A DNA stretch of 32,107 bases from a virus (lineage: Duplodnaviria > Caudoviricetes), in the IMG/VR virus record IMGVR_UViG_3300037991_003601, positions 1-32,107 of that record; one strand, written 5' to 3'. The notes under the pieces are model-generated. The model saw only the letters and a list, made by a program, of their open reading frames with translations. It was not told where the DNA came from and did not search any database. Shown here piece after piece: positions 7,040 to 26,121 of this stretch. Position 1 is the stretch's first letter; each line of letters begins with the position of its first letter. Made by a program: the position numbers and the translations under genes.

Positions 7040-7129
7040 AAAAAGAAAAGAGCAATCCCGCCCCAGCGAGTGTCCTGGAGGTGGTCTTGTTTGCCTATCG
7101 CCTTGCGGCCCAAAGGCGGGATCGCTCTT
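7040..7129 (-). other. Structured intergenic RNA element (15-bp closing stem, internal hairpins, U-tract)
   Basis: Minus-strand AAGAGCGAUCCCGCC pairs with GGCGGGAUUGCUCUU (one G-U); encloses GCC-GCAA-GGC and CCAG/CUGG hairpins; followed by UUCUUUUU. Confidence 0.55.
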
Positions 7130-8015
7130 AAATTCTTTGCCATAAAGTTCTCCACGCTATTTCTGCGGTTTGGGGGACGACTCCGTTGCCCAGGAGCCTA
7201 AGTCTGTCCACCCGATGGGTAAGCCCATCAACTGCTCCACCCAATTCGGATTGAGCTTCGGTGACCCGTGGTTCTTCCCACTCGTACTGCTCTTCTCCAG
7301 GGCGGGCGGGCCAGCGTGTATGTTGACATCCTTGACTAGTGAAGCCCTTCTTTTCACATTCGGATTCACATAACTCGAATCGTCCTCCAACGGGGTTGAC
7401 CAATTCGGATTCACCCATTCCCTTAATTGGGCTTTGCCCGCTGGCATCGTACCGTTCTTTACTCTTTTTATCTTCGACTCTGAATGTCCCTGAGAGTCCG
7501 AGGTCCGCACGGTAGGCCAGGATGAAGCATCGGATGCGTTGGTGAGGCGCGCCTGTTTCCTCCGCTGAGAACAATCCCCACTCCGTTCGGTAACCATCCG
7601 CTTCCAAATCGGACAGGACTCGCCATAACCCCATCGTGGTGTGACCTCGGACATTTTCGGCAAAAAACCAGGAAGGACCAATTGCTCGGATGTGTCTTCG
7701 GATATACGGCCACAAGTGCCTTGGGTCTTCTTCGCCTTTTCGCTTTCCCGCGCTACTGAACGGCTGACATGGATATCCGGCAGTGATGCCACAAATTTTT
7801 CCTCGAAAGATTCGTGCAGGGAAGGTTTTAAGATCCGAGTAGATAGGCGCGTCATCCATGCGTCCTTCTTCAATCTTCGCAACCAAGTTTGCTTGGACGA
7901 AGGCTTCGATCTCCACATTGCAGACTGTTCTAACATCCACGCCCGCTCGTCTAAGTCCAAGTTCAATCCCTCCGTATCCTGTACAAAAGCTGATAATGTT
8001 TTGGGTACTATCCAC
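7128..8015 (-). CDS. C5 cytosine DNA methyltransferase, alpha polypeptide (motifs I-VIII and X, lacking IX)
   Basis: FCTGYGG (I), GYPCQPFSSAGKRKG (IV), ENVRG (VI), PHQRIRCF (VIII), LLGNGVV (X). GTG at 8015 follows the GGAGGGG RBS; the track extends the ORF to a TTG at 8045. Confidence 0.9.
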   Translation of the reverse strand: MDSTQNIISFCTGYGGIELGLRRAGVDVRTVCNVEIEAFVQANLVAKIEEGRMDDAPIYSDLKTFPARIFRGKICGITAGYPCQPFSSAGKRKGEEDPRHLWPYIRRHIRAIGPSWFFAENVRGHTTMGLWRVLSDLEADGYRTEWGLFSAEETGAPHQRIRCFILAYRADLGLSGTFRVEDKKSKERYDASGQSPIKGMGESELVNPVGGRFELCESECEKKGFTSQGCQHTRWPARPGEEQYEWEEPRVTEAQSELGGAVDGLTHRVDRLRLLGNGVVPQTAEIAWRTLWQRI

Positions 8016-8017
8016 AT
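7157..8017 (-). CDS. Overlapping alternative-frame ORF: putative beta polypeptide of the methyltransferase carrying motif IX
   Basis: 286 codons open on the same strand inside the MTase gene; ATG behind the same RBS; ends with LNPNWVEQLMGLPIGWTD (motif IX-like). Confidence 0.75.
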   Translation of the reverse strand: MWIVPKTLSAFVQDTEGLNLDLDERAWMLEQSAMWRSKPSSKQTWLRRLKKDAWMTRLSTRILKPSLHESFEEKFVASLPDIHVSRSVARESEKAKKTQGTCGRISEDTSEQLVLPGFLPKMSEVTPRWGYGESCPIWKRMVTERSGDCSQRRKQARLTNASDASSWPTVRTSDSQGHSESKIKRVKNGTMPAGKAQLREWVNPNWSTPLEDDSSYVNPNVKRRASLVKDVNIHAGPPALEKSSTSGKNHGSPKLNPNWVEQLMGLPIGWTDLGSWATESSPKPQK

Positions 8018-8229
8018 CTCCCCCTCCTCTTATTCTTAAATTCAAATTCCTTGGTTACCGGCATGACCCTCTGTTCGTCTGTCCGATACTTCCGCCCGTG
8101 CTCATCAATGCTCAGTCGGTTCTGCGACCAAAAGTAAGCCCATGCCTTTTGCATCTCCTCAGTCGATGGAAATAAGCCCTCATAGATGCTTCTCCTCCTT
8201 GGTCCATCTCCGTATCGATCAGGACCCAT
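8008..8229 (-). CDS. Hypothetical protein
   Basis: 73 aa; TAATG-coupled to the exonuclease stop; its own stop overlaps the MTase starts. Confidence 0.65.
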   Translation of the reverse strand: MGPDRYGDGPRRRSIYEGLFPSTEEMQKAWAYFWSQNRLSIDEHGRKYRTDEQRVMPVTKEFEFKNKRRGRCG

Positions 8230-9047
8230 TAGTCGGAAGTCTTTCTAGGATCGTATCCCTTGAGGGATCTCCATATTCGACAGACTCCTTTGAAGACCTG
8301 CCAGGCATCCCGTATTTCTTCGGGAGAATATTTAATCACCTCAAAGCGACCAGGTTCAGTCGATGAGATGTAACAGTTAGCTCCATGCACCTGCATCTGT
8401 TCAACCTGATCCTCGCCCCAATAGGTAGCGGCATAGGCGGCAATCTGATGAATCTGAAAGTCGTAACTTGTTACCTTTACCTTTGGCTTAGTCTTACGGG
8501 TTTTCCAATCGACTATGAACTTTTGACCCTCGGCTCCCTTTCCTACGATATCGACAGTGCCCGCAAATCCGTGTTCCATATTGACGAGAATCTGCTCACG
8601 CTCAATGAATCGTAATTGATTCTCCTGCTTCCACTGGAACGCGGGATTTACATATTCGAGCAAATCATCATCTATAGGATATCCCTCGAAGTATTTCTCG
8701 ATTGCATCGTGGATACGGGTTCCAAAGTCGGCCGCTTCCTCAACAGGTTGCTCATGCAGAACGAGGCATTTGTCTGCAAATCGTTCAAAAGATTCGTCCA
8801 TTTTTGGAGGGTTGTCGTATGCTATCCGCAAGAGTTGATCCTGTTTCCAACGATCAAGCCCGTGCTTGGCAAACATTCCGAGTAGGGTCGTTACTGATGG
8901 TATCAATCGATACTTTTTAGCATCTCGAAGGTTAGTATTCCTATCGCCACTCCCGTCCGCCTTTGGCATCGTATGACGAGCCTCTCCTGTTGCAGTGTAC
9001 CAATGGCCACCACTTCCCCGCTTAGGCTTTGGTGTTAATATAGCCAC
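8229..9047 (-). CDS. PD-(D/E)XK exonuclease (RecB/Cas4-like phage nuclease)
   Basis: PSVTTLL, GTRIHDAIE, FAGTVD, IVDWKT and QIAAYA motifs; GGAGG RBS before GTG. Confidence 0.88.
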   Translation of the reverse strand: MAILTPKPKRGSGGHWYTATGEARHTMPKADGSGDRNTNLRDAKKYRLIPSVTTLLGMFAKHGLDRWKQDQLLRIAYDNPPKMDESFERFADKCLVLHEQPVEEAADFGTRIHDAIEKYFEGYPIDDDLLEYVNPAFQWKQENQLRFIEREQILVNMEHGFAGTVDIVGKGAEGQKFIVDWKTRKTKPKVKVTSYDFQIHQIAAYAATYWGEDQVEQMQVHGANCYISSTEPGRFEVIKYSPEEIRDAWQVFKGVCRIWRSLKGYDPRKTSD

Positions 9048-9110
9048 GGATTACCTCCTTCCCACATCTGTATAAAAAGTATACCAGGTGGATGGTTCGC
9101 TTGATGTAGA

Positions 9111-9383
9111 TCATGTAGCCACCTCCATCTTTTCCATCATTTTGGTGACCTCTAAATCGTTATAGGAAAGTCTACCTTCGACCTGTCTGACCGAATTTAG
9201 ACACGCCGCATGATTTCTCTGAAAGATATCACCTAACTCCTCATATGTTCTTCCTTCTCGGGCAAGCCAAACGGCAAGCTGTCGAACTAAAGCCAAGGGC
9301 TGTTTTCGATTCTTACTGATGATATCTGCTTCCGAGTATCCAGTCTTTTCGACTGCCTTAAAAATGTCTGATAACTCTCTCAT
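9111..9383 (-). CDS. Stand-alone DnaA C-terminal (domain IV)-like HTH protein
   Basis: IISKNRKQPLALVRQLAVWLAREGRTYEELGDIFQRNHAACLNSVRQVE matches the DnaA domain IV pattern; likely start MRELSD at 9383 (track 9413). Confidence 0.75.
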   Translation of the reverse strand: MRELSDIFKAVEKTGYSEADIISKNRKQPLALVRQLAVWLAREGRTYEELGDIFQRNHAACLNSVRQVEGRLSYNDLEVTKMMEKMEVAT

Positions 9384-9442
9384 GTTATCATATCGATGAC
9401 TACTGCGAGCCACCCTATTGCTAGTAAAATTATTGGATTCAT
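9380..9442 (-). CDS. Very small hydrophobic peptide, not in ORF track
   Basis: MNPIILLAIGWLAVVIDMIT (20 aa); stop overlaps next ATG (ATGA). Confidence 0.4.
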   Translation of the reverse strand: MNPIILLAIGWLAVVIDMIT

Positions 9443-9460
9443 ATTGTTATGGGTTGGGGT

Positions 9461-9494
9461 AAAGGGTGACCGGCCACACACTAACCGGCCACCC
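9461..9494 (-). terminator. Stem-loop (weak intrinsic terminator or processing hairpin) after SSB-like gene
   Basis: GGGUGGCCGG / CCGGUCACCC 10-bp stem with one G-U on the minus strand, followed by UUU. Confidence 0.6.
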
Positions 9495-9520
9495 AGGGGT
9501 TTTACTATGTCTGTACTAAC

Positions 9521-10138
9521 TCAGAACGGAACGCTCTGTCCTGAAGATGGTTGGGAAAACATTTGAGTTTGTGCCGGCTGAACAGTCTGAGGTTGCTCGA
9601 CTGTTACTGTGGTGGTTGCCTGTGGAGCAGGTTGTGCAGGTGCAGGCTGTACGGGTTGAGCAGGAGCCGGTGCAGGAGATCCGCCTGGTATCGTAAAGTT
9701 TGATGCCTGTGGAACCTGTGCCTCCATACCTGCCATTACTGGAGTTACCGATGTGATATCGGAGTAAGTTCTGCCCTTCTGTGAAGTCTTCTCCACAATA
9801 TTGATCATCGCTCCCTTACCTCTAAGAGTTTCAGTGTCGAATCCTGCCCCAGGTGCTGAACCTAACCATGATGTCAAAACGCCTGTCAGTTTGCTCTTCT
9901 CATGGGCTGAGATTTTCATCTCGCCCGTTTGAACAAGTTGCCCGTCCTGTGTTCCGAAAAGAAACCGGCAGACATCGAGAGTTTCGATCTGAGAAGGATC
10001 TTCGTATTTCGGACGCTGAATGCCGAATGAATCCTTTACCTCCAAGCAGATCGCAAGGTACTGCCCTGGTCTGCATGGTTCAAGCGACCAACCTGTGATC
10101 GGTCCGTCCCCGTTAGATGATTGAGTTAATATTGCCAT
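9521..10138 (-). CDS. Putative single-stranded DNA-binding protein
   Basis: OB-fold-like beta-rich core (GQYLAIC...HEKSKL...LRGKGAMINI...YSDITSV), Pro/Gln-rich linker and terminal VPF; lies between resolvase and exonuclease. Confidence 0.65.
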   Translation of the reverse strand: MAILTQSSNGDGPITGWSLEPCRPGQYLAICLEVKDSFGIQRPKYEDPSQIETLDVCRFLFGTQDGQLVQTGEMKISAHEKSKLTGVLTSWLGSAPGAGFDTETLRGKGAMINIVEKTSQKGRTYSDITSVTPVMAGMEAQVPQASNFTIPGGSPAPAPAQPVQPAPAQPAPQATTTVTVEQPQTVQPAQTQMFSQPSSGQSVPF

Positions 10139-10183
10139 AATGTTATTTGCTTTCTATTCCCTTTTTTACGAGTGGGAGACTCA

Positions 10184-10642
10184 TTAGGTGTTTAGTAAAA
10201 AATGCCGAAGGATAAGAACCGCATCGGCTGTTTTAAGAGTGAGTCCCTTCACTTGTGGGAAGAATCTATCAGCATGATCGCGAAGTGCTTTCTTGCGTTT
10301 CTGAGAAGTTAAACCTTGCAGGCCACCGAGTCCCTTTTGCCACTCTTGTGGCTTGATCAGAGTCACGGGGACCTGCAAGGCTCTCAGTACCCCAACTAAA
10401 AAACCATAGTTATATCCTAGCTTGAAAGACGATGAGCTTGGGATCGCTTTGCCTACAAAGGGTGGAACCTTTTCCACTGCTGATTCGATTAGGTCGATAT
10501 CAGGATTGTCTGATAACTCCCTCATGTGATGTACAAATTCGCACTCATCACCCCAAGGGTGCAGTTGAATACTGGTCAAATCATCGAAAGCGATTGCGTA
10601 CCCGCCACTTACACCTGGGTCTATTCCGATGTAGCACTTCAT
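10184..10642 (-). CDS. RuvC-like Holliday junction resolvase
   Basis: YIGIDPGVSGG, AVEKV, FKLGYNYG, PQEWQK, TADAVLI. Confidence 0.88.
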   Translation of the reverse strand: MKCYIGIDPGVSGGYAIAFDDLTSIQLHPWGDECEFVHHMRELSDNPDIDLIESAVEKVPPFVGKAIPSSSSFKLGYNYGFLVGVLRALQVPVTLIKPQEWQKGLGGLQGLTSQKRKKALRDHADRFFPQVKGLTLKTADAVLILRHFLLNT

Positions 10643-11065: not shown

Positions 11066-11503
11066 TTATACTTTCTTACTTTTTTTTATGTTTTCACGCA
11101 TTTTTTGTTTGTTTTTTTCAACTCCTTTCATTCGTAAAACTCTATAATAGTTGGAATCGCCACGAACTTTTTTCTTACCTGTTCCTGCCTGTCCACCGAT
11201 CTGACCCAAAAGCATGGCGGCCTCTTTGATCCTGTTCTTCCTGTCGATAATAACATAGTTGATGCGTTCTCCTGTAACAGCGATTGTATATCCACGATAC
11301 TCATTATCGCTTACCTGGTGCATGAAGTCAGTATTCAAATTAGCTCGTAATTTCCATTGCCTATGTATCGCTTCGGGAACCCGTTGCTTTAAGTGGTCTA
11401 TACTATAACCAAAACACTTACGGGTAGCACCCAAAAAGTACAATGTACACGCAAAGTCATTAACCCATCTTTTCTTGCCTTTTTTCATAATTATATCATG
11501 CAA
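11066..11503 (-). CDS. Hypothetical basic protein
   Basis: 145 aa Lys/Arg-rich ORF with AAMLLGQIGGQAGTGKKK glycine motif; start uncertain. Confidence 0.65.
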   Translation of the reverse strand: MHDIIMKKGKKRWVNDFACTLYFLGATRKCFGYSIDHLKQRVPEAIHRQWKLRANLNTDFMHQVSDNEYRGYTIAVTGERINYVIIDRKNRIKEAAMLLGQIGGQAGTGKKKVRGDSNYYRVLRMKGVEKNKQKMRENIKKSKKV

Positions 11504-11667
11504 CTGCTTGCGTTGATATTGGCATAGATATTTACAAGATCAACCCTAAAACGGCAGAAATTGGCAGAAATTAATACCTATTTAACGCAAGGGATTGCTT
11601 GCGGATATTCGGGAATATCAGTCCCTAATTAGCGAAATGGCTCGGCAGATTAAATGGATTATCCTTA

Positions 11668-11865
11668 CTAGGATTTACGAGCTAGTCGTTCTGCTCTTCG
11701 AGCTTCGATCCTTTTTTTCATTTCAGGATCTTCCCTCATTTTTTTATCCATTAATTTGTTTAATGAAGATGCCATTCCTTCAATTTGTTTATCTGACATC
11801 TGCGATGCTATACCATCATCATGGTCAAAATCAAAAACTTCAGGTTTCTTTTTATCTTTGGTCAC
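11668..11865 (-). CDS. Small hypothetical protein overlapping the end of the giant gene
   Basis: 65 aa; GGAGGT RBS before GTG inside the last codons of the 2166-aa gene. Confidence 0.65.
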   Translation of the reverse strand: MTKDKKKPEVFDFDHDDGIASQMSDKQIEGMASSLNKLMDKKMREDPEMKKRIEARRAERLARKS

Positions 11866-14800
11866 GAATTACCTCCATTGCTGTATCGTAGGACATATTC
11901 AAAGCGTCAGAATTTTCGCCTTTCAAGTATGCCCAAATATCTTTTTCGGGATACCATAGAGTAGCCTGAAGATCCGCCGGGGTCAAGTCGATGCCCTTTT
12001 CTTTTAGTGACTTTAATGCGACATCGAATGCTTTAGTGATCACAGCCCGTTCGGCATTAGAAGGAACATCGATTGGTTTCAGCTTATCATTAACAGTCGA
12101 ACCTGCTTTTGCCCATTGTGGTTTTTCTTTACCGATTGCCTCCTTCTCAGCTTCAAACTTTGCAAGTCGTTTCTCCAGGTTAGTAGTGCCTCGGTCTTCC
12201 TTCTTTGCCTTCTTAATAGCATCTTTGGCTTTCTTTACATCAGTATTAGCTTTGGCAAAACTTCTTTCCCATTCACGATTTAATTTTTCAGCAAATTCAT
12301 AAATGGCCTCATAATTATCTCGGCCAATCGTGTTATCTCCAAATAAAGACTCAAATGCTTTGTCTGAAATCTTAAAGTTAGCCACTCCATTCTTTTGGAG
12401 TTTTCCGCTTATCGATACACCTTTTAAAAATTCAGGCATTTCAAGACCGGCAAACTTTCGCTTACCTTTATTATTGCGGACAGCATATATAATTCTACCG
12501 ATATCACCTGGTGACAGTGCTGTGTCTAATGATAGACCAGTCAATCGCCCGTAAGTTCTACGCAACCAAAGGTCCACAGTAACAGGATCGTAATTACCTC
12601 TAAGGTTTTGGAAAAAGCCCTGTCCGATCTTCGGTCCGAATATAGCTGAACCTTTTACCTTATCTGTACTATACCCAGCGATTGAGAATTTCTTATCCCC
12701 GAAAAAGTCTCTACCCCACTCTATAAGTTCTTTAACTGTAAAGTCGGCATCCAAGAAATCATTAAGTTTATCAACTCCCATCTTAGCCTCTACCTTATCG
12801 TAGAGTTTTAGATTGCTTGTAATGGCATCTGCTTTCGCACCATGCTTTATGTTATAGTTAAATTTACCGGTTCTGATCTTATGCTGGTACTGCGAAACTG
12901 CGGCCTTGGCATTATCCATCACCCTCATGTTCTGACTAGTGATCGATAATGCACCAAGGAATCTATCCTTAGCCTCAAACTTTTGGCCGATCTCAGGGAA
13001 GATCTCTTCCGCTACAGACAATGCTTTTTCAACAGCACTTGTATACCAGTTTACCGCATTGCCGGTTCTACCGAGTGCGGCTTCCCCTTCTTGTGCGAGC
13101 ATACCGCCCAACCACTCCACTTGTTCCTGGGTAAAGTCCTGTGCCTTTATAGGTTCACCAAATTCATCTTCGTATGATTTACGAAGTAAAGCGGCGGCCT
13201 CCTTGTTATCCTTAGCCATACCTTTGGTAAAATTTGCACCGAATGTAGGATTAGCATCGTCCCATGATTGAACCGATGCCGGAGTTATATCGCCTTTACC
13301 AGGCATAAAAAGAATATTCCTCTCCCCCGCATCGAAGGTTCCCCGATTGCCGGTGGCCGATTTGATTTGTTCGGGGGAGAAGGCGACATAGATGTCAGAG
13401 GTAAAGTCGTTCGCTTTATCAGTTATTTTTGCTTTTACTCCGTCAAACCCAGTAACCTTTTTGAGTGCAGTATTTATAAATTCAGCATTTACACCCGCCC
13501 CCATTAAATCGCCAAGTTGATCTAAAGCAGTCTCGTTTTTTGAGATTAAATCGACTGCATTATATAACCCCCCATAGTCTGCTAAGAAACCTTCATCGAT
13601 TGGTACTTCAGGATCGTATCTATGTTGCTCTTCGGCGATTTCCATTAAAAGAGTCTCTAAAGTATCAGCATCAAACCCTTTTTGTTCTACAGACATTGGT
13701 TTTTCTATGTCCAAATAAACCTCCATCAAGCGGCCATCCTTACCCATATAGGATTGAGCCATACCTTTATCAGTAGCAAAGTAGAAACCTTGGCCTTCCA
13801 TTCGACCTAAATTACCGATTCGGTCATAATCGAAAACATTAAATTCTCCGCTAGGTGTCCCATGATAAACCACCAACGGCTCGCCGTTCTCATCGACTAC
13901 CTTGGACTTGCCGAACCACTTCTTAAAGTATGGCGAATCCGTACCCTTCTCCTGCCATAGCTTTGCGGCCTCGGCTTGCTTCCCCTTCCCCGCACCAGCC
14001 TCGGAGGCCGGCATGAAGAGTTTGTCGGAGGCTGGCCTTATCATTGTGTTACGAGTTGAGAAATCTTTGTTTCTCCCTTTGTTTTCTACGAATCCAAATT
14101 TCTTATAAAACTTTTTTAAACGGGAAACGCTTGAGCCGCCAAATGATATATCAGGTGTTAATGATATAACTGCTCCTTGATCGTCAGCCATTTTTATAAT
14201 GTCATCCATAACAGCGGTCCCTAATCCACTGCTCCGCTCGTCTTTAGGTACTATAATTCGACTTAACTCAAATCCCTTCTGTGCATCACCATAAATATCT
14301 AATTTTACGCTAGGATATTTTGCCTTTATTTGGTCTACCGTCATGCCGCCAGCCGGCATGAAGAGTTTGTTTGGGTCCGAGTTCTGCCTCTGTTTTATTT
14401 CTTCATATGACTCTTGTTTCTTGTACTGACCTTCTTCCTTTAAACTCTGATGAATTACCTCGTACAAATCAGTTCCATGAAAATCAATAGGATCATTAGT
14501 GATCGGATGATTTATTTCCCAAGTCGAATAATCAATCCAACGATCTAAAAGCGTCCCCATTTTAGCGTCTTGCCGTGAAATAACTTTAGCCATTTCTATG
14601 GATGCTATATCTAAACCCCTTGCAACTCTTCTAGCTAAATACTCAGCAAAACTTTTACTTTTAATATCAGGAGATTTTAATGCAATTGATGCAAGTTGAT
14701 CGACCGTCAGATCATTATTTACAATCCTTTCCCTTCCGAGCTTTCTAGTGACTCCCATCAGTTCGGTTGCATCTATTTGATTTATAGCAGACTTTAACCA

Positions 14801-17800
14801 AAAAGGTGCTGAAAGAATTTGCCCATCATTAGTGAATCTTGAAACCTCTAAATCTGAGCGAAGTTTTTTTCTGAAGTTTATATACTCGTCTTGTAAATCT
14901 GTAGGGATTTTTTTATACGCATCCCCTGCCGGCATGAAGAGTTTGTCGGTAATCTGCACATCGGCTTCGCCCCTTCCAGGCATAAGGTTTCGCCTGATAC
15001 GATCAATAACGATGTTTCGGGTATTGCCGGTAGGATTAAGTGTTCCTATACGATCTAATCTGCGAGAGCGGTATGTTCCTAATGTGTTTGCCCGTCTCTC
15101 ACCGAGGTTTGATAAAGTGGGGTTGTCTGCAATCTGACTTTTGCTTACAGGACCGAATGCGGCATTTAGGAAGTTTTTCTGCCCTTCGGTAATTCCACTT
15201 TCAGGAGTACCATTGACTATGCCTTTGGCATGATTGTCGAGGTACTTCTCGAACATGGATTCGAAGTTTTTACGAATTACTGCTGGGTCTGATCCGCCAA
15301 ACGCCTGGCCGATTTCATTACCTCTTCGCTTCAGGAGGTAGTCGATATTCTTCTGTAGCTTGTCAAGGGATACAGTATCTAAGATAACATTTCCGTCCTT
15401 GGTAATCGTAATGCCATAAACCAAGCTATCGCGATATCCGCCTTTTAGCGTCTTGTATTTCCTTCCTCCCTTGCCGGTAGCCGCATAGTAGAATAGTAGC
15501 ATCTGATTACCGATGCCCTCCCTACCCGCTTTGCTGGCTTCCCGAAGAAAGTTTATCTGCGATGGGTTGTATCGGCCTGTCCTGGATAGTTCATCGATAA
15601 TTGAGTCATCTATGAACTTGCCGGAGCCTGTAAGTTTTCCGTCCTCAGTTTCGGACAGAGTGACATGACCTTCAGGTAGATCATTTTCTCGAGCCTTTAT
15701 AGACTCGGTCAAATCCCTGGCGAGTGCCTGGTTTGCTCTTCTTGTCTCTGATGGAGAATAGACTTCGGGCTTTTTGGTGATTGGGTTGACAATAATGTTG
15801 CCATCTTTGTCGGTCTTAAAGTGTCCACCATTGTTAAATACCTGCAAACTCTCAATCGGATCACTGGGTGAAACGATGACTGTGTCTAATTCATCATCCT
15901 TAGTGACTGGGCGTTGTTCGCGAATCTCCGATTCCGACAAGCCGATTGTCTCGTCTTCATACCGCTTGACCAGGTTGTCCAATTGCTTGGATGATTTAAA
16001 TGGTTTACCGAGTATGCCGGTTCCCTGAACAAGAGATCCATCCGCCTTGGTGGCCATACCGAGTGAATGCATAGCTTTACGCATAAAGCCTCCACTGGTG
16101 ATACGATCACCCAGGCTTTCGATGAGCTTATAAGTGGATGACTGCCCTGCCCGTTTGGATGTTTTGCCGGATAACATTCTTTCGGCCACAGTCTCAGCAA
16201 ACAGTTCCCGTGCAAACTGCTCGGGTGTTTCATATGCCTGCTTTGCTTTTTCCGAAACATTGGAGTTGGCAAGTTTATCGACATAAGCCTTTTGAAGTTC
16301 CCTAAATTCATCGGTGAGTTCGTAATGTTTCATACCATTCTCATCGGTAGTAATCTTGGGCTTACCTGTGGCTTTATCTATCTTGGTAAATATTCCGACT
16401 TTTCCCTTCTCAGGATTGCCAAGCATCTCCTCGAGGATATTAGGCAGTAGTCCATGCCTCTCAACATGGTGGCCGATTTCATGTGAAAGAATAGTTCCGT
16501 AAGATAAATTGGTATCGGTATTTATTTCGATCACACTGTCAGAACCATCTACATAATGTGCTCCATTCGGTCCATCCTTCCCCATTGATTTCATTCTGAT
16601 CTCCACATCGGGGAAGAATTGAGAAAAGGTAGATATTGCTACCTGTTGATCCTTGTCCAGCTTTTCGAAATTTGCCCGCTCAGTTTCGGTAAGCGATTGC
16701 TTGTGGTATTCTAAATCACCCAACTGTTTGGCGAGCAGATCAGATTTATTATTGAACCTAAGAAGAGATCCATAACCTAATCCGGCGGCTATAAATGGAG
16801 CCGATGCTCCGATTGCAGATGCCGCACCCTCTTCCCCTCCGGCCATATATCCGAATGCACCAGGCAATGCCGCCCCTCCTGCCGCCGCTTTGGCGACATT
16901 GGCGGTTTCTGTGCCTAGTCTACCTAGTCCTGATCTATCGATAAACCTGGCGACTCCTCTTACACTAGATGGAAGGTCTCGGGTTTGAGTGAGTATAGGT
17001 TTTAACTGTGAGGCGGCATCTCCGAGTACCAGGTTATCAGTCCTATCGACTAATACCTCGGCAAGTTTAGGATCGTCTGCCGGCAATGCCCCTACCCTTT
17101 TAAAGAATGGCATGGTGGTCTCGGCCATAGTCAACTGTTTACCGAGTATTGCTGAACTTCGTCCCATGCTGGCGATTGCCCGTGGGCCCATATAGGCGGC
17201 CAATGCTCCAAAGCCTGTGCCGGTTAAACTGGCTTCCCCATCTGTGAGGTCAGCGGCTCCACCGATTGATGTATAAATAACCCCCTTGGCTACCTGTTCA
17301 CTAAGCCCTGCTCTCATCAATAAGGTAGTCGCTTCCTCCACGCCTGCTCTGCGAATAAACTCGGTGAGGTTACCAAAGTGCTCACCCGCTTTGCCGACTG
17401 CCTGCATACCCTTTCCAACCATTTGATTGGTAAACCCTGCCTTTGCCTTCTGCTCAGTAAATGGAGTGATTTTTGCGAGTATTTCATCCGATTCCTTAGT
17501 CGCCTTTTCGAGTGCATCGGTAGCAGTCTTTACGAGTTTGTCAGATGCATTGGCTGGTAATCGATTGAGTTGCTTTTCAAGTAAAAATTTCTTGCTGTTT
17601 GCTTCCTTGAGTTGCTCGGCCAACTTCTTTGCGGTTCCCCTGCGTAGCATATTGGTGGCAGATCGAATACTTCCAGTGGTTACTGCGGCCACAGGATTTT
17701 CCAACTGTACGAATAAAGATGCCGCTAGTGCCTGTTTCTTATCAGGCTCAACTCTTCCGGCTTTGAGGTCTCTATACATATCGAAATCACCAAACTGCTC

Positions 17801-18352
17801 GGCCATGATTGCCGCCCCATCATCTATAAACGACTGAGTTTTCATCATGTCGCCAATAAACTGAATGGAGGCATCTATATCTTCATCCCCTTCACCTGCC
17901 ATTTTGGAGAATGCAAGTTTACCGGCATCTCCTATAGTTTTATATCCAGCAATTGCTTCGGCTACTGTTTGGTATGTTGTTGCTTTACGAGACTTACCTT
18001 TTGGCACTTTTACACCAAGCTTTCTTCTCATCTCAGCAGGCATACCTTCGATAGCATCTCTTTGAAAATCGTCAAATGGTTGTTCAATTATTGAACCCAT
18101 ACCCTCCATGACTTCACCGGCGGCCTGTTTAAATGCATCGTATAAACCTGTGTCAGACTCCTGGTCAAAGTAACCATTCTTATAGGCGGCTCGAGCTAGT
18201 TCCTTATTACCATCTTCGAATGCTTTAATCATCCGATCAGGTGGAACTACCTGCTTGAGAATCTGAAAAGTGGATTCTTCATTAGGAGCCTCCGGCCCCT
18301 CGACCATGAAATCTACTCCGAGGGGTTCGCTGAATATTCTGTACTGTCCCAT
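11852..18352 (-). CDS. Large internal virion (ejection) polyvalent protein: zincin metallopeptidase-like, unknown, GNAT, ART-like and HhH glycosylase-like domains
   Basis: 2166 aa; last of three internal-protein genes; HEIGH (16469-16483); GNAT VPKDERSSGLGT...LKKFYKKFGF; ART-PolyVal-like FKKWFGKSKVVDENGEPLVVYHGT...GFYFA...FSPEQIKSATGNRGTFD; C-terminal NWY...GPKIG...PVTVDLW...LQATLW. Confidence 0.85.
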   Translation of the reverse strand: MGQYRIFSEPLGVDFMVEGPEAPNEESTFQILKQVVPPDRMIKAFEDGNKELARAAYKNGYFDQESDTGLYDAFKQAAGEVMEGMGSIIEQPFDDFQRDAIEGMPAEMRRKLGVKVPKGKSRKATTYQTVAEAIAGYKTIGDAGKLAFSKMAGEGDEDIDASIQFIGDMMKTQSFIDDGAAIMAEQFGDFDMYRDLKAGRVEPDKKQALAASLFVQLENPVAAVTTGSIRSATNMLRRGTAKKLAEQLKEANSKKFLLEKQLNRLPANASDKLVKTATDALEKATKESDEILAKITPFTEQKAKAGFTNQMVGKGMQAVGKAGEHFGNLTEFIRRAGVEEATTLLMRAGLSEQVAKGVIYTSIGGAADLTDGEASLTGTGFGALAAYMGPRAIASMGRSSAILGKQLTMAETTMPFFKRVGALPADDPKLAEVLVDRTDNLVLGDAASQLKPILTQTRDLPSSVRGVARFIDRSGLGRLGTETANVAKAAAGGAALPGAFGYMAGGEEGAASAIGASAPFIAAGLGYGSLLRFNNKSDLLAKQLGDLEYHKQSLTETERANFEKLDKDQQVAISTFSQFFPDVEIRMKSMGKDGPNGAHYVDGSDSVIEINTDTNLSYGTILSHEIGHHVERHGLLPNILEEMLGNPEKGKVGIFTKIDKATGKPKITTDENGMKHYELTDEFRELQKAYVDKLANSNVSEKAKQAYETPEQFARELFAETVAERMLSGKTSKRAGQSSTYKLIESLGDRITSGGFMRKAMHSLGMATKADGSLVQGTGILGKPFKSSKQLDNLVKRYEDETIGLSESEIREQRPVTKDDELDTVIVSPSDPIESLQVFNNGGHFKTDKDGNIIVNPITKKPEVYSPSETRRANQALARDLTESIKARENDLPEGHVTLSETEDGKLTGSGKFIDDSIIDELSRTGRYNPSQINFLREASKAGREGIGNQMLLFYYAATGKGGRKYKTLKGGYRDSLVYGITITKDGNVILDTVSLDKLQKNIDYLLKRRGNEIGQAFGGSDPAVIRKNFESMFEKYLDNHAKGIVNGTPESGITEGQKNFLNAAFGPVSKSQIADNPTLSNLGERRANTLGTYRSRRLDRIGTLNPTGNTRNIVIDRIRRNLMPGRGEADVQITDKLFMPAGDAYKKIPTDLQDEYINFRKKLRSDLEVSRFTNDGQILSAPFWLKSAINQIDATELMGVTRKLGRERIVNNDLTVDQLASIALKSPDIKSKSFAEYLARRVARGLDIASIEMAKVISRQDAKMGTLLDRWIDYSTWEINHPITNDPIDFHGTDLYEVIHQSLKEEGQYKKQESYEEIKQRQNSDPNKLFMPAGGMTVDQIKAKYPSVKLDIYGDAQKGFELSRIIVPKDERSSGLGTAVMDDIIKMADDQGAVISLTPDISFGGSSVSRLKKFYKKFGFVENKGRNKDFSTRNTMIRPASDKLFMPASEAGAGKGKQAEAAKLWQEKGTDSPYFKKWFGKSKVVDENGEPLVVYHGTPSGEFNVFDYDRIGNLGRMEGQGFYFATDKGMAQSYMGKDGRLMEVYLDIEKPMSVEQKGFDADTLETLLMEIAEEQHRYDPEVPIDEGFLADYGGLYNAVDLISKNETALDQLGDLMGAGVNAEFINTALKKVTGFDGVKAKITDKANDFTSDIYVAFSPEQIKSATGNRGTFDAGERNILFMPGKGDITPASVQSWDDANPTFGANFTKGMAKDNKEAAALLRKSYEDEFGEPIKAQDFTQEQVEWLGGMLAQEGEAALGRTGNAVNWYTSAVEKALSVAEEIFPEIGQKFEAKDRFLGALSITSQNMRVMDNAKAAVSQYQHKIRTGKFNYNIKHGAKADAITSNLKLYDKVEAKMGVDKLNDFLDADFTVKELIEWGRDFFGDKKFSIAGYSTDKVKGSAIFGPKIGQGFFQNLRGNYDPVTVDLWLRRTYGRLTGLSLDTALSPGDIGRIIYAVRNNKGKRKFAGLEMPEFLKGVSISGKLQKNGVANFKISDKAFESLFGDNTIGRDNYEAIYEFAEKLNREWERSFAKANTDVKKAKDAIKKAKKEDRGTTNLEKRLAKFEAEKEAIGKEKPQWAKAGSTVNDKLKPIDVPSNAERAVITKAFDVALKSLKEKGIDLTPADLQATLWYPEKDIWAYLKGENSDALNMSYDTAMEVIRDQR
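14007..14949. repeat. Three dispersed in-frame exact 19-bp repeats GCCGGCATGAAGAGTTTGT (KLFMPA linkers)
   Basis: Copies start at 14007, 14352 and 14928; first and third extend to 22 bp identity; spacings 345 and 576 bp are multiples of 3. Confidence 0.95.
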
Positions 18353-19692
18353 TACTGACCTTCTACCGAAAGTTGTCCTGGTATTCTGTAAGTTCCCTGC
18401 TTGGTATCTATGCCTGGTCCTTGAGGCTTTGACGGGCTTAATTCTTCTTCAATTTGCAAATAGTTTGATGGAATTATTTGATCCACCCTCAAACCACTAT
18501 TTGCCGCTAAACCTTTGTATCGCTGTAAAGCCTCCTTTGCTGGTTTAAACTGAGCCGATGCAGTATTTCTTGCTGTACTCAAAAAATCGTCTCTTTGATC
18601 CGGCGTTAATAGAGTACCATCTTCAAGTTTTCTTATAGCTTTAGCAATTGGTAATGGTATAGCAATACCATCATTCTCACTTCTCTGTAGCCATGAAGTT
18701 GCATCTGCGGCGGTTTGAAACTCTCCCTCCCTAACAACACTGCCAGGATCAAGTATCTTCATGTAATTAAAAACTAAAGCTAAATCACCTGCCGCAGATG
18801 GATTTTCAGCGGCAGTTTTTACTTTTAGAAATGCAGTGCGAACATCGCCAAAATCCTTTGTGGCATCCAAAGCGTTAAACTCTTTACGCATATCAGCTTC
18901 GGCTTTTCTAAGAGTTGCAAAATCATCCATGCCAGCAGTTGCTTGTTGTGCTAAATTATTAATCGCTACCATTCCAGCCTTATCTGAAAGCTCTCCCGAT
19001 TCAACTGCCTCCTGTATCCTTCTGCCCTGTGGTTTGAATGAATTAGGTAATTGAGCGACAGCAGGTGAATCTTGTTTTTCGAATCGTTTAAAGTCAGGCT
19101 TTTCTGTAATATATTTTGCAATAATCGAAGGTCTTTCAGGTATCGGTTCTTCTTGCATTGCAATAAACTCAGGTGTACCTGGTATCTGTTCGGGGCGATA
19201 TTCCTGTTGCAATGCACTAAACTCAGGAGTTGGAGTTTGCACTGGTTGCATACTGAACTTGGCAAGGCTTTCATTCAGTGCCTTCTGCTCATCTAATAAA
19301 TCCTGTTCTGCCTCAAACTGTCTTTCTTTTAAATTTTGTGCCTGATTAGCAGTAGTGGCGGCTCGTTTAGAATTAGCAATCGATGTTCTAGCCTGCATCT
19401 GAGCGATTTTCATCTGCTGATCTGCCGCCTGCTTACGCTGATACTCGTTTTGCAGGAATGGATTCTTGGCGATTGCCTTGGCATCTTCTTCCGATGCACC
19501 CTGCCCCATTAGGTATTGAGTCATCTCATTCGCCCGTTCCTTCTTTTCCTTCCCCGCAAAGTATGCTGTGGCCGCCTGTCCGAGTGCATTTCCGAATGCC
19601 TCATTCGCTCTTGCCTGTGCCGCCCCTGCTGTCTGAAACGCTGAGAAGTCCATCCTCCCCAAGCCTGCCTGTACTGTATCGCCGATTGCCAT
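18352..19692 (-). CDS. Internal virion (ejection) protein
   Basis: 446 aa Ala/Gln-rich helical protein between the other two internal-protein genes; C-terminal GDLALVFNYMKILDPGSVVREGEF block. Confidence 0.7.
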   Translation of the reverse strand: MAIGDTVQAGLGRMDFSAFQTAGAAQARANEAFGNALGQAATAYFAGKEKKERANEMTQYLMGQGASEEDAKAIAKNPFLQNEYQRKQAADQQMKIAQMQARTSIANSKRAATTANQAQNLKERQFEAEQDLLDEQKALNESLAKFSMQPVQTPTPEFSALQQEYRPEQIPGTPEFIAMQEEPIPERPSIIAKYITEKPDFKRFEKQDSPAVAQLPNSFKPQGRRIQEAVESGELSDKAGMVAINNLAQQATAGMDDFATLRKAEADMRKEFNALDATKDFGDVRTAFLKVKTAAENPSAAGDLALVFNYMKILDPGSVVREGEFQTAADATSWLQRSENDGIAIPLPIAKAIRKLEDGTLLTPDQRDDFLSTARNTASAQFKPAKEALQRYKGLAANSGLRVDQIIPSNYLQIEEELSPSKPQGPGIDTKQGTYRIPGQLSVEGQ

Positions 19693-24247: not shown

Positions 24248-26121
24248 GTTACAATAGTTACGTCGTTAATTCGAGATTCCACATTGTAAAACGAAGTATC
24301 TATATACAGATCGTTTCCATTACTTAGAGTGTTTGCAGTTTGAAAGGTTACATAGTCCTGCCCAGCTTCTTCCACTACTTGAAATCTTACTCCACGAGTC
24401 CCTTGCCCATGATACCCGTGAGCATTACCATCTAAGTCTCTTAAATAAAGTGCTTGGTCGGATGCTCTGACAGTATAAACCTCGTACAACTCACCTAAAG
24501 TAAGAGTCCCTGATCCGTCTAATGAAATTACTTTCGGTCTTGATGCAGAGGGATAGCTGTAATTACTGCCTGAAGCTGTTTCAAAAACAAAGTTTGGATT
24601 CTGACTGTACACCGTTTGTCTCTTCTGAAACTTTACTTCGTTCGTAGAAGCGTAATGTCTTATCCTAAACCAATCACCCGCAGTAGCAAAGCTTGCTTCA
24701 TCGTACCCGCCCGAAGCGACAGTACGACCGCCACTATAAAACCTTAAAAAGTAAGGCTCAATATTTTGGACATAGTCATCGTCTGTATAAGCAAGTCCTA
24801 CCTCTAACGAATTTTTAGCCCATTGAAACTGTACATAGCCATCTGAGTTACCGTCTATCTTTTGTACTGATGACGCTCCTGCATTCCATCCGTTAGCACC
24901 GCTTATCTTTTCAAGACCGCCTCCGGCATACGCTTGAACTGTTCCTCCACTTACTGCTCCTTGAAAGATTGAGATAGAATTAAATTCTCGTAAACTATTG
25001 ACTGTGCTTACCTTGAATCCTGATACATTAGTTTGTGTAGTATGTTCAGCGTATCCATCTGATCCTAATACAGTAAAATCATTATTTAGATCAGTTTGTC
25101 CATTACCTTTTATAGGAGTAAATTTTATGTCATCGTCACTTGAAACTTTAACAATTAATTTAATTCCTGAAGCGATGTTCTGAGAGAATGTTTGTTTGAT
25201 AGCAACTTGACTCCCTGAACCCTTTATAATTCCTTTAGCTAATTTAGTTTGATTGAGACTTCCACCTGATACAGTCCAATTAGTAGGAACTTTATCAACT
25301 ACTTCCCAATTTAGACCCCTGTGGCTAACCCATACCATGTTGTCAGTTGAAACTTGAATATTCGCTTTGCCATTCCCGACATGGTATCTGTGCATTTCAT
25401 ATACTTCACCCTCAGTTATTCCGTCTATTGTTTTTAACGCAATGACAAGAGGACGATTCGTAGATTCAAAAACATAATGGGTGTTATGATTTCCGTTTGG
25501 ACTTGTAGGAAAAGTATAGGAAGTGTTTTCAACATAACCTAATTGCGAAAAGTCTCCGTTAGTAAGTTTTTCCCCACTCAGATTTATATCCGTAAGATTG
25601 GTCCAACTAACGGCATTACTAATACCTTTGATACCTAAAGTCTCTAATGAGGAAACACGGGTAACTAGATTACCTAGACTGACACGAACATTACCCAAAC
25701 TTACCTGACTAGCGAGTAAGGCCATATCCGACTCCATGTCAGACATCTTGGTGTCCTTCTCGTTCTTATCAGATTCTAGTGCGGCTACCCTGTTATCTTT
25801 ATCGTTTTTATCAGACTCTAAGTTAGCAATCTTGGTATCCTTTACTGCCTTGTCATCTTCTAAGGCAGAAATCTTGGACTCCTTAACGAGCTTATCATCT
25901 TCTAAAGTTACTATCCTAGTTTCTTTGAGATCCAGGGATGTCTTAACATTTCCAAGACTAACTTTCGTCCCAAACTTTCCGTCTGCTAAGTTCTTGTATT
26001 CAGTAAATTTATTTTCAGATGTGTAGTCTGCTCTATCATCCGATGATATTGAGCCAAATCCAGTTAACCGGCACATGGTAAACCCGCCTGTTTTTATATC
26101 TTTGACAGCAACAGTCTTCAT
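24244..26121 (-). CDS. Tail fibre / receptor-binding protein with coiled-coil stalk
   Basis: 625 aa; 14-aa LE(D/S)DK heptad repeats followed by beta-rich carbohydrate-binding-like domains (LTNGDFS...NWT). Confidence 0.6.
   Translation of the reverse strand: MKTVAVKDIKTGGFTMCRLTGFGSISSDDRADYTSENKFTEYKNLADGKFGTKVSLGNVKTSLDLKETRIVTLEDDKLVKESKISALEDDKAVKDTKIANLESDKNDKDNRVAALESDKNEKDTKMSDMESDMALLASQVSLGNVRVSLGNLVTRVSSLETLGIKGISNAVSWTNLTDINLSGEKLTNGDFSQLGYVENTSYTFPTSPNGNHNTHYVFESTNRPLVIALKTIDGITEGEVYEMHRYHVGNGKANIQVSTDNMVWVSHRGLNWEVVDKVPTNWTVSGGSLNQTKLAKGIIKGSGSQVAIKQTFSQNIASGIKLIVKVSSDDDIKFTPIKGNGQTDLNNDFTVLGSDGYAEHTTQTNVSGFKVSTVNSLREFNSISIFQGAVSGGTVQAYAGGGLEKISGANGWNAGASSVQKIDGNSDGYVQFQWAKNSLEVGLAYTDDDYVQNIEPYFLRFYSGGRTVASGGYDEASFATAGDWFRIRHYASTNEVKFQKRQTVYSQNPNFVFETASGSNYSYPSASRPKVISLDGSGTLTLGELYEVYTVRASDQALYLRDLDGNAHGYHGQGTRGVRFQVVEEAGQDYVTFQTANTLSNGNDLYIDTSFYNVESRINDVTIVT
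25731..25925 (-). repeat. Degenerate 42-bp (14-aa) tandem coding repeat
   Basis: TRIVTLEDDKLVKE / SKISALEDDKAVKD / TKIANLESDKNDKD / NRVAALESDKNEKD / TKMSDMESD; boundaries approximate. Confidence 0.8.

Follow-up and report, generated by a model that had tools for sequence, protein, structure and literature searches.

How does a phage gene come to hold an array of unrelated domains, fused in frame and separated by exact copies of one short repeat, and what does that repeat do? The question is raised by a stretch of phage DNA of 32,107 nucleotides, here called the window, in which an earlier note saw something like an integron operating inside an open reading frame. We propose, at a probability of roughly 60%, that the gene encodes a polyvalent protein whose units are shuffled at the repeat by short-homology recombination, and that the peptide encoded by the repeat is the likely cut site of the protein's own zincin. 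The features concerned are:

8229..10642 (-): candidate general recombination kit, with a PD-(D/E)XK exonuclease (8229-9047), an NGO0469/DUF669-like protein (9521-10138) and a Holliday junction resolvase (10184-10642)
11852..18352 (-): gene of the giant polyvalent protein (2166 aa), closing the structural block
15926..16735 (-): zincin-like metallopeptidase domain, aa 540-809, with HExxH at aa 624-628 and Glu716 as third ligand
14990..15628 (-): WYL-like domain, predicted from fold only, aa 909-1121, closing the backbone
14978..14989 (-): first junction motif, aa 1122-1125, at the backbone end; a peptide-level copy with an invariant Pro
14930..14977 (-): stub of 16 aa, scar of a deleted F3 unit; GC 0.56
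14928..14946: 19-bp repeat, copy 1, exact
14354..14929 (-): unit A, unknown domain, 192 aa including the motif; GC 0.37
14352..14370: 19-bp repeat, copy 2, exact
14009..14353 (-): unit B, GNAT acetyltransferase, 115 aa; GC 0.40
14007..14025: 19-bp repeat, copy 3, exact
13301..14008 (-): ART-PolyVal unit (PF18760, E 9e-28), nested, with a peptide-level motif copy at its end (13301-13315)
11855..13300 (-): C-terminal unit, 482 aa, replaceable, with weak DUF7178 similarity below cut-off

The giant gene lies on the same strand as, and downstream of, the major capsid and tail collar genes. It joins biochemically unrelated domains in one polypeptide, namely a zincin, a GNAT, an ART-PolyVal domain and two unknown units. 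The hallmark domain PF18760 scores 98 bits against a cut-off of 31, and viral models that bear the names ART-PolyVal or LPD protein hit the backbone with E-values from 1e-11 to 1e-6. The protein is a member of the described phage polyvalent protein class, which the earlier note missed. Both this class and the proposal that its members process themselves are already published; literature searches covering few subscription papers returned none that names a cut site or junction motif or in-gene shuffling. The position of the gene, together with analogy, suggests that the protein is part of the virion, and by analogy to phi24B gp47 it would be packaged and injected.

The backbone is predicted to fold as a zincin followed by a WYL-like domain. 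In the zincin model (pLDDT 81; strands 44-72, helices 79-92 and 171-188), a three-stranded sheet precedes the HExxH, and a downstream Glu sits on a second helix; the His, Glu, His and Glu are invariant in 31/31 aligned homologues. Structural matches to zincins reach Z 4-6.6. WYL proteins (PafBC, CapW, BrxR) make up six of the top seven structural matches of the closing domain, at Z 6.3-6.8 over about 90 residues with an rmsd of 2.5-3.5; all of these Z-scores, for zincin and WYL alike, lie below 8, values that the tool grades as middling. Close to the end of the WYL-like domain, two Arg residues and an Asp are invariant. Residues 910-1125 have no Pfam match even with E-values of up to 10 allowed, a Foldseek search of the PDB with the whole model was empty at E 0.001, and of two sequence searches of solved structures one was blank and the other gave only weak M48 peptidase matches.

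The repeat itself is as first reported: three exact in-frame 19-mers starting at 14007, 14352 and 14928, spaced by 345 and 576 bp inside the giant ORF. The closest further match within the window has five mismatches, and the copies at 14928 and 14007 have 22 bp in common. Degenerate copies claimed near 13300 and 14980 exist as peptide; as DNA neither comes within six mismatches of the 19-mer. A palindromic GCCGGC end had also been claimed. The Pro codon and the codon that follows it differ among relatives, and the palindrome, which is not conserved, is rejected as a recognition element.

The segments enclosed by the repeat are unrelated to each other and AT-richer than the gene backbone, as proposed, with the GC of units A and B (0.37 and 0.40) falling under every backbone window of equal length (mean 0.47). 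Unit B, scanned by itself, exceeds the Pfam cut-off for a GNAT, and has relatives of single-domain size on contigs of up to 50 kb. Unit A was rightly called an unknown domain: it has no hit in Pfam or NCBIfam, a weak PHROG match (E 0.02), a top Atlas score of 0.80 and no match among proteins of 337-2000 aa, a range that leaves out its known 2153-aa carrier. The ART-PolyVal unit consists of a GC-rich conserved head (13853-14008) and tail (13301-13387) with an AT-rich swapped core between them. In two relatives (L035 and L015), a whole F3 unit sits between the two halves of the stub; in the window, F3 was lost by a join of short homologies that lie outside the repeat.

Among relatives whose backbones are nearly identical, some have A and B together, some have only one of the two and some have neither, and the breakpoints lie at the repeat. 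Two loci with 99% backbone identity (L013 and L014) are without units A and B and retain one repeat, L035 has A without B, P0013 has B without A, and L010 has the same array as the window. Among 11 proteins with backbones at least 97.5% identical, at least eight junction patterns were read by eye, none of them that of the window, although the database was clustered at 90% and the comparison therefore favours differing arrays. Internal units stack up to seven, each with its own motif, and the terminal family F5 occurs in 4/26 loci, the remainder having different terminal units (family counts come from these 26 loci; order changes were judged by eye). Assembly graphs fork at the repeat inside single runs. 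At the DNA level, 9/11 unit families ending in the window's peptide use the same Leu and Phe codons, against a background of 0.056. Units also cross between lineages: in seven of eight loci with backbones of 26-38% protein identity, the ART head DNA is 91-99% identical, and unit F4 has 92% identity between backbones that share 39%. Because units vary at the repeat in close relatives and cross backbones of 26-39% identity, the cassette reading holds. The gain, loss and reordering of units that the earlier note had proposed do take place at the repeat, both among homologues and inside single samples, and a compositional shift goes with them; the fixed order, protein-only repeat and even GC that it named as contrary to its idea are not what the homologues display.

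The repeat does border units, as that note held. Its reading as a DNA cassette boundary overlooked a second role, that of a peptide signal matched to the backbone of each lineage. The junction peptide is an aromatic-x-Pro motif that outlasts DNA divergence. The Pro of the first motif is present in 31/31 aligned rows, and the backbone-end motif in 115/126 distant representatives. Junctions in the 26-locus, 90-junction and 31-row sets were called by peptide pattern, and Pro invariance in those sets is therefore partly circular. Distinct contexts following an independent anchor in the ART tail end in x-x-Pro in 30/30 cases; they are Met-type in Met-type backbones, Arg-type in 4/4 Arg-type backbones and Ser-type in the sole Ser-type backbone. 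In a set of 80 distant representatives, agreement between a tail motif and the residue at the end of its own backbone occurs 119 times, against a shuffle mean of 52, and 0/5000 shuffles reach as high. The middle residue of the motif tracks the residue that closes the backbone of each lineage. No tail motif matches the backbone end in 32 of the 80 proteins, and Leu-type backbones carry seven Met-type and seven Leu-type motifs. The Arg label changes two or three times on a quick tree with long branches, so the motif classes represent few independent events; no locus emerged when viral contigs were scanned with a backbone of the Arg type.

Agreement between motif and backbone would also arise if recombination admitted only DNA that matches.

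We consider it likely that the junction motif is a self-cleavage site of the zincin, in which case one sequence would both shuffle enzyme modules and release them. When phages infect the same cell, unequal crossing-over within the 14-22 bp core, or within longer boxes rich in GC, would stack or remove units in frame. New domains would be captured by rarer joins just within an existing unit, leaving a short head and tail as scars. Once the protein was packaged and injected, the zincin would cut at each motif and free separate effectors, and the WYL-like domain might, speculatively, gate cutting by sensing nucleic acid. A predicted complex of the zincin, a 35-aa junction peptide and zinc scored 0.00, which is no answer and counts neither way. 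Self-processing by the zincin-type domains of polyvalent proteins has been proposed, with an analogy to polyproteins, in PMC5512222.

Units could be shuffled in the same way while the motif signals docking or handling when the protein is packaged or ejected, or is recognised by a protease of the prohead or the host, the zincin being aimed at the cell wall or a host target. The virion RNA polymerase of N4 contains a domain of the zincin type and is nevertheless packaged whole (PMC5512222); the phi24B paper proposed peptidoglycan as the target of such a peptidase domain, with gp47 as the case in point, and the phi14:2 preprint left both roles open. Further, any reader linked to the backbone would yield the observed match of motif and backbone. 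However, the first copy of the motif, with its invariant Pro, stands precisely where the backbone that carries the zincin ends, the motifs separate unrelated enzymes that would need free ends, and no separate protease was recognised in the 26 ORFs scanned. We regard these other roles for the motif as unlikely.

It is far less probable that the motif is a DNA scar only, with junction peptides alike, without protein function, because joining needs matching DNA. Recently active junctions are indeed identical at silent sites, and scars of 10-40 nt, left from heads and tails, occur often. Against this, the peptide is written in 24 different codings among 90 junctions, the motif is still present at 20-30% backbone identity, and older homologous tails keep aromatic-Met/Leu-Pro with other codons while upstream residues have changed, an observation that is partly circular.

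The integron-like reading, in which a phage or host recombinase reads the repeat and moves circular cassettes, is equally improbable. A 14-bp core recurs in 59/62 loci (a set that has duplicates and was partly selected via the repeat), rare codons persist across unrelated units, and exchanges at the repeat are base-precise. Against these stand the unconserved palindrome and the wobble bases at either end of the core, which vary freely. No tyrosine recombinase (PF00589) was matched in the window or five relatives (0/6 records, four of them at least 90% complete), no serine recombinase (PF00239) in the five relatives, four of which are at least 90% complete, and neither type of integrase or resolvase-type recombinase in 4/4 relatives at least 90% complete. 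The three junctions form no common hairpin, their folds differing (z -0.4, -1.8 and +1.2). Many breakpoints fall away from the repeat, at other homologies, with clusters at 14969, 13985, 13857-13869 and 13384-13397. Among the joints listed for eight runs (15/16 plus 6 listed), from contigs that drop rare forms, none ran backward as a circle would give. Given that these records yield no such recombinase, that the junctions lack a hairpin in common and that breakpoints are often placed at other short homologies, ordinary recombination at short homologies accounts for the shuffling better than the integron analogy does, though a recombinase encoded by the host, or one of an unrecognised kind, may still act. 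We infer that the exonuclease, DUF669-like protein, which we take to be an SSB, and resolvase take part in it. Chance is ruled out as the origin of the repeat (in 30 triplet shuffles, the longest exact triple repeat was only 10-12 bp, and the same codons in three copies of one peptide have P ~3e-4 given this gene's codon use), and tandem duplication is rejected as the source of the units because they are unrelated.

Self-cutting of polyvalent proteins by zincins has been proposed since 2017, with no demonstration found in the literature covered, and fast gathering of domains was left open. For one Verrucomicrobium locus, recombination with nearby cassette ORFs was raised as a possibility (PMC5512222). 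The present family puts a name to a candidate site, has natural variants of its specificity in the Met, Arg and Ser types, and offers a route of domain gain and loss. More tentatively, and with some doubt, we speculate that it represents a widespread family of virion polyproteins with a nucleic-acid-gated self-protease (zincin plus WYL-like sensor), a lineage-specific recognition code, and cut-site DNA that doubles as the recombination site. If so, that doubling would mean that a captured domain arrives in frame and releasable, and phages with a common code would draw on one pool of effectors. With the motif as a guide, hundreds of unannotated giant proteins can be divided into separate units, each a candidate effector against the defences of bacteria, and the family may yield new sequence-specific proteases.

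Integrons carry arrays of unrelated, AT-rich cassettes, variable in number and order, with a tyrosine recombinase (IntI) linked to the array, an attC-type hairpin at each cassette end and circular intermediates. The window's array likewise varies in make-up among loci and holds mutually unrelated, AT-rich cassettes; unlike an integron, it has no tyrosine recombinase found and no shared hairpin, and its units are fused in one polypeptide. In T4-type PeSL shuffling, conserved short elements also flank variable genes, and their homology allows genes to be inserted, lost or replaced with no integrase devoted to the task. PeSLs, as PMC2839356 describes them, lie between genes, combine a promoter with a terminator over about 100 bp, and have been shown to give mini-circles, whereas the repeat here is 14-22 bp and encodes a peptide in frame within one ORF. 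Polymorphic and MuF-type phage toxins also swap variable effector domains behind a conserved N-terminal part; as PMC5512222 and PMC9503650 summarise them, it is mainly one C-terminal domain that varies, whereas here several internal units do. With the polyvalent proteins of PMC5512222 the window's protein has in common its large multidomain form, the combination of zincin, ART-PolyVal and GNAT, and its place in the phage structural block; a junction motif, in-gene repeat, lineage-matched site or WYL-like backbone domain does not appear in the text of that paper covered here. Finally, CapW, BrxR, PafBC and CapP represent ssDNA-responsive WYL regulators and damage-activated metallopeptidases (PMC11662680), to which both backbone domains have predicted fold matches. 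Those are host regulators on separate proteins, whereas here both predicted folds lie in one phage protein.

The phage record spanned by the window is ~86% complete. It codes for a DNA polymerase A and the major capsid protein, and has tail genes. Its structural block ends with a giant gene, whose product carries an ART-PolyVal domain, a GNAT domain and an HExxH motif, and is therefore a member of the polyvalent proteins, as the accessible part of PMC5512222 defines them. A conserved N-terminal backbone is followed by exchangeable units:

11852-18352, minus strand: giant gene, 2166 aa
14990-15628, minus strand: last backbone domain, residues 909-1121
14354-14929, minus strand: unit A, a 192-aa domain without a Pfam hit
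14009-14353, minus strand: unit B, the GNAT domain
13301-14008, minus strand: ART unit

Sequencing runs containing the stretch came mostly from marine or aquatic samples, and the Verrucomicrobia label on two distant homologues is a weak hint of the phage's host. Elsewhere in the window, a small protein (9111-9413, minus strand) has a DnaA C-terminal DNA-binding domain (PF08299, E 1e-11). Two long ORFs of 305 and 286 aa (7128-8045 and 7157-8017, both minus strand) overlap in different frames; the shorter matches a PHROG labelled DNA methyltransferase, and the longer is, from its motifs, presumably a cytosine methyltransferase. Two structural genes (19100-19240 and 25754-25903) contain short degenerate repeats, spaced at 42-54 bp.

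An earlier note on this DNA reported three exact in-frame copies of a 19-bp repeat, enclosing AT-rich segments. The copies (14007, 14352 and 14928) are confirmed in the giant ORF, and the enclosed units, with GC of 0.37 and 0.40, fall below every equal window of the backbone (mean 0.47). The short boxes flanking the units are GC-rich (0.54-0.58). Triple repeats in shuffled sequences reach 10-12 bp at most, against 19 bp in the gene, and for the codons of the encoded peptide to be identical in all three copies, P is about 3e-4. Further degenerate copies proposed near 13300 and 14980 are present as peptide, but have no match as DNA. Of the 11 unit families (not wholly independent) whose last residues are the window's peptide, 9 have the same Leu and Phe codons (background 0.056). 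The DNA-level layer of the repeat is real.

Exact matches to the 19-mer turned up in 11 viral loci, in every case at this junction of homologous giant genes. Backbone searches added 22 and 29 further loci; 8 loci duplicating another contig or the window were removed, and 26 were retained for unit clustering. These yielded 26 unit clusters, of which three are truncated pieces of other clusters; a single array contains at most seven units.

Units are added, dropped and reordered at the repeat, as the earlier note had proposed (probability about 0.9). Arrays differ among near-identical backbones: two loci with a 99% identical backbone (L013 and L014) lack both units and retain a single repeat, L035 has unit A alone, and the homologue P0013 has unit B without unit A. 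Among 11 proteins with backbones at least 97.5% identical, we counted by eye at least eight junction patterns, none of them the window's, in a protein database whose clustering at 90% favours differing arrays. The array of L010 equals that of the window. Order also changes, with one unit type preceding unit family F3 in P0015, P0018 and L047 and following it in P0013. Units also pass between lineages: ART head DNA is 91-99% identical in 7 of 8 loci whose backbones share 26-38% protein identity, and the core between head and tail is swapped in 11 of 12 loci compared. The ART unit, 162-339 aa long, is thereby a nested cassette, with near-invariant GC-rich head and tail.

In sequencing run X3, whose sample is possibly the one that yielded the window, a 41-base contig runs from the ART head across a single repeat into the tail of unit A, skipping the GNAT unit (depth 10 versus 15, which is not a share of molecules); its 11 bases either side of the repeat are fewer than the bridging rule requires. 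Runs X2, X4 and X11 show the same end, and X5, X6, X9, X10 and X11 have joints omitting unit A or both units. Such short joints may originate in relatives.

Older junctions, called by the peptide pattern itself, retain aromatic-Met/Leu-Pro with differing codons (24 codings among 90 junctions). Less circular tests agree in supporting this protein layer. The Pro at the backbone end is invariant in 31/31 aligned rows and found in 115/126 distant representatives. Further, x-x-Pro ends all 30 contexts after the ART-tail anchor, and its type, set by the residue before Pro, is that ending the host backbone: Arg in 4/4 Arg-type proteins and Ser in the single Ser-type protein. In pooled proteins with backbones dereplicated at 90%, Arg-type motifs number 16 in the 11 Arg-type proteins and 9 in the 27 hydrophobic-type proteins, and hydrophobic-type motifs number 9 and 93, respectively. 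Among 80 new representatives with tails of at least 250 aa, from 134 new proteins, 119 motifs agree with the residue that ends the backbone of the same protein; the average over 5000 shuffles is 52, and no shuffle reaches 119. Against lineage matching, 32 of the 80 have no matching motif, Leu-type backbones carry mixed types, and a quick tree suggests that motif classes arose only a few times. A distant relative (P0095, residues 1423-1990) has its own longer junction repeat, with four copies of ~10-15 residues. In L011 (ORF residue 1167) and L043, His or Ile replaces Met, always before F3; these variants may be weak or uncut sites.

We consider putative self-cleavage the likeliest function of the motif, and a fairly probable one. 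The polyvalent class and its proposed self-processing are already published: the accessible text of PMC5512222 proposes self-processing by zincins of polyvalent proteins and describes the N4 polymerase as packaged whole. In the portions available, a phi24B preprint reports that virions contain a polyvalent protein, for which it prefers a role at the cell wall, a phi14:2 preprint leaves both roles open, and PMC13434306 merely notes the HExxH motif. Our literature search, external files of PMC5512222 aside, found no published description of the motif, its lineage matching or in-gene shuffling.

Two parts of the backbone model (pLDDT 81) can be recognised. The first, residues 540-809, matches zincins (lethal-factor protease domain, Z 6.6; PprI, 5.7; Pro-Pro endopeptidase, 5.3; ArdC, 5.1), and the second, residues 909-1121, matches WYL domains (PafBC, 6.8; CapW, 6.7; BrxR, 6.6). 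Every structural Z is below 8 and no sequence profile support for WYL was found in residues 910-1125, so the predicted WYL-like assignment is treated as a lead. Viral models with polyvalent-protein names hit the backbone (E 1e-11 to 1e-6); the accessible part of PMC5512222 contains no mention of a WYL domain in them. According to the available text of PMC11662680, CapW binds ssDNA through its WYL domains, and the metalloprotease CapP is activated by damage. By analogy, this likeness suggests that nucleic acid may gate the predicted zincin.

The array had been likened to an integron operating inside an ORF; it is not one, and none of the evidence indicates a site-specific enzyme. The window and five relatives yielded no tyrosine recombinase, and those relatives no serine recombinase (four of the five are at least 90% complete), and no hairpin is common to the three junctions. 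Wobble bases vary at both ends of the repeat core, and further breakpoint clusters lie away from it (14969, 13985, 13857-13869 and 13384-13397). A 16-aa stub in the window is a remnant of F3, lost between short homologies outside the repeat.

We infer instead that unequal crossing-over at short homologies moves units, and that new domains are captured just inside existing units. Such capture would account both for the scars that units share at head and tail and for the way in which a new domain acquires the repeat. A candidate recombination set of the phage comprises an exonuclease, a Holliday junction resolvase and a putatively SSB-like protein; all three may serve unit shuffling. GNAT relatives of single-domain size, present on long contigs, fit capture from a free gene. 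The DNA immediately beyond both the giant gene and a small downstream ORF (11400-11651) is 86-90% identical in relatives with unrelated backbones (L001, L007, L026, L035 and L062); this region is likely a right-hand homology arm for exchanging the whole tail. In its working, such shuffling would resemble that at PeSLs in T4-type phages, as outlined in the available part of PMC2839356, but, unlike PeSL shuffling, it takes place inside a reading frame.
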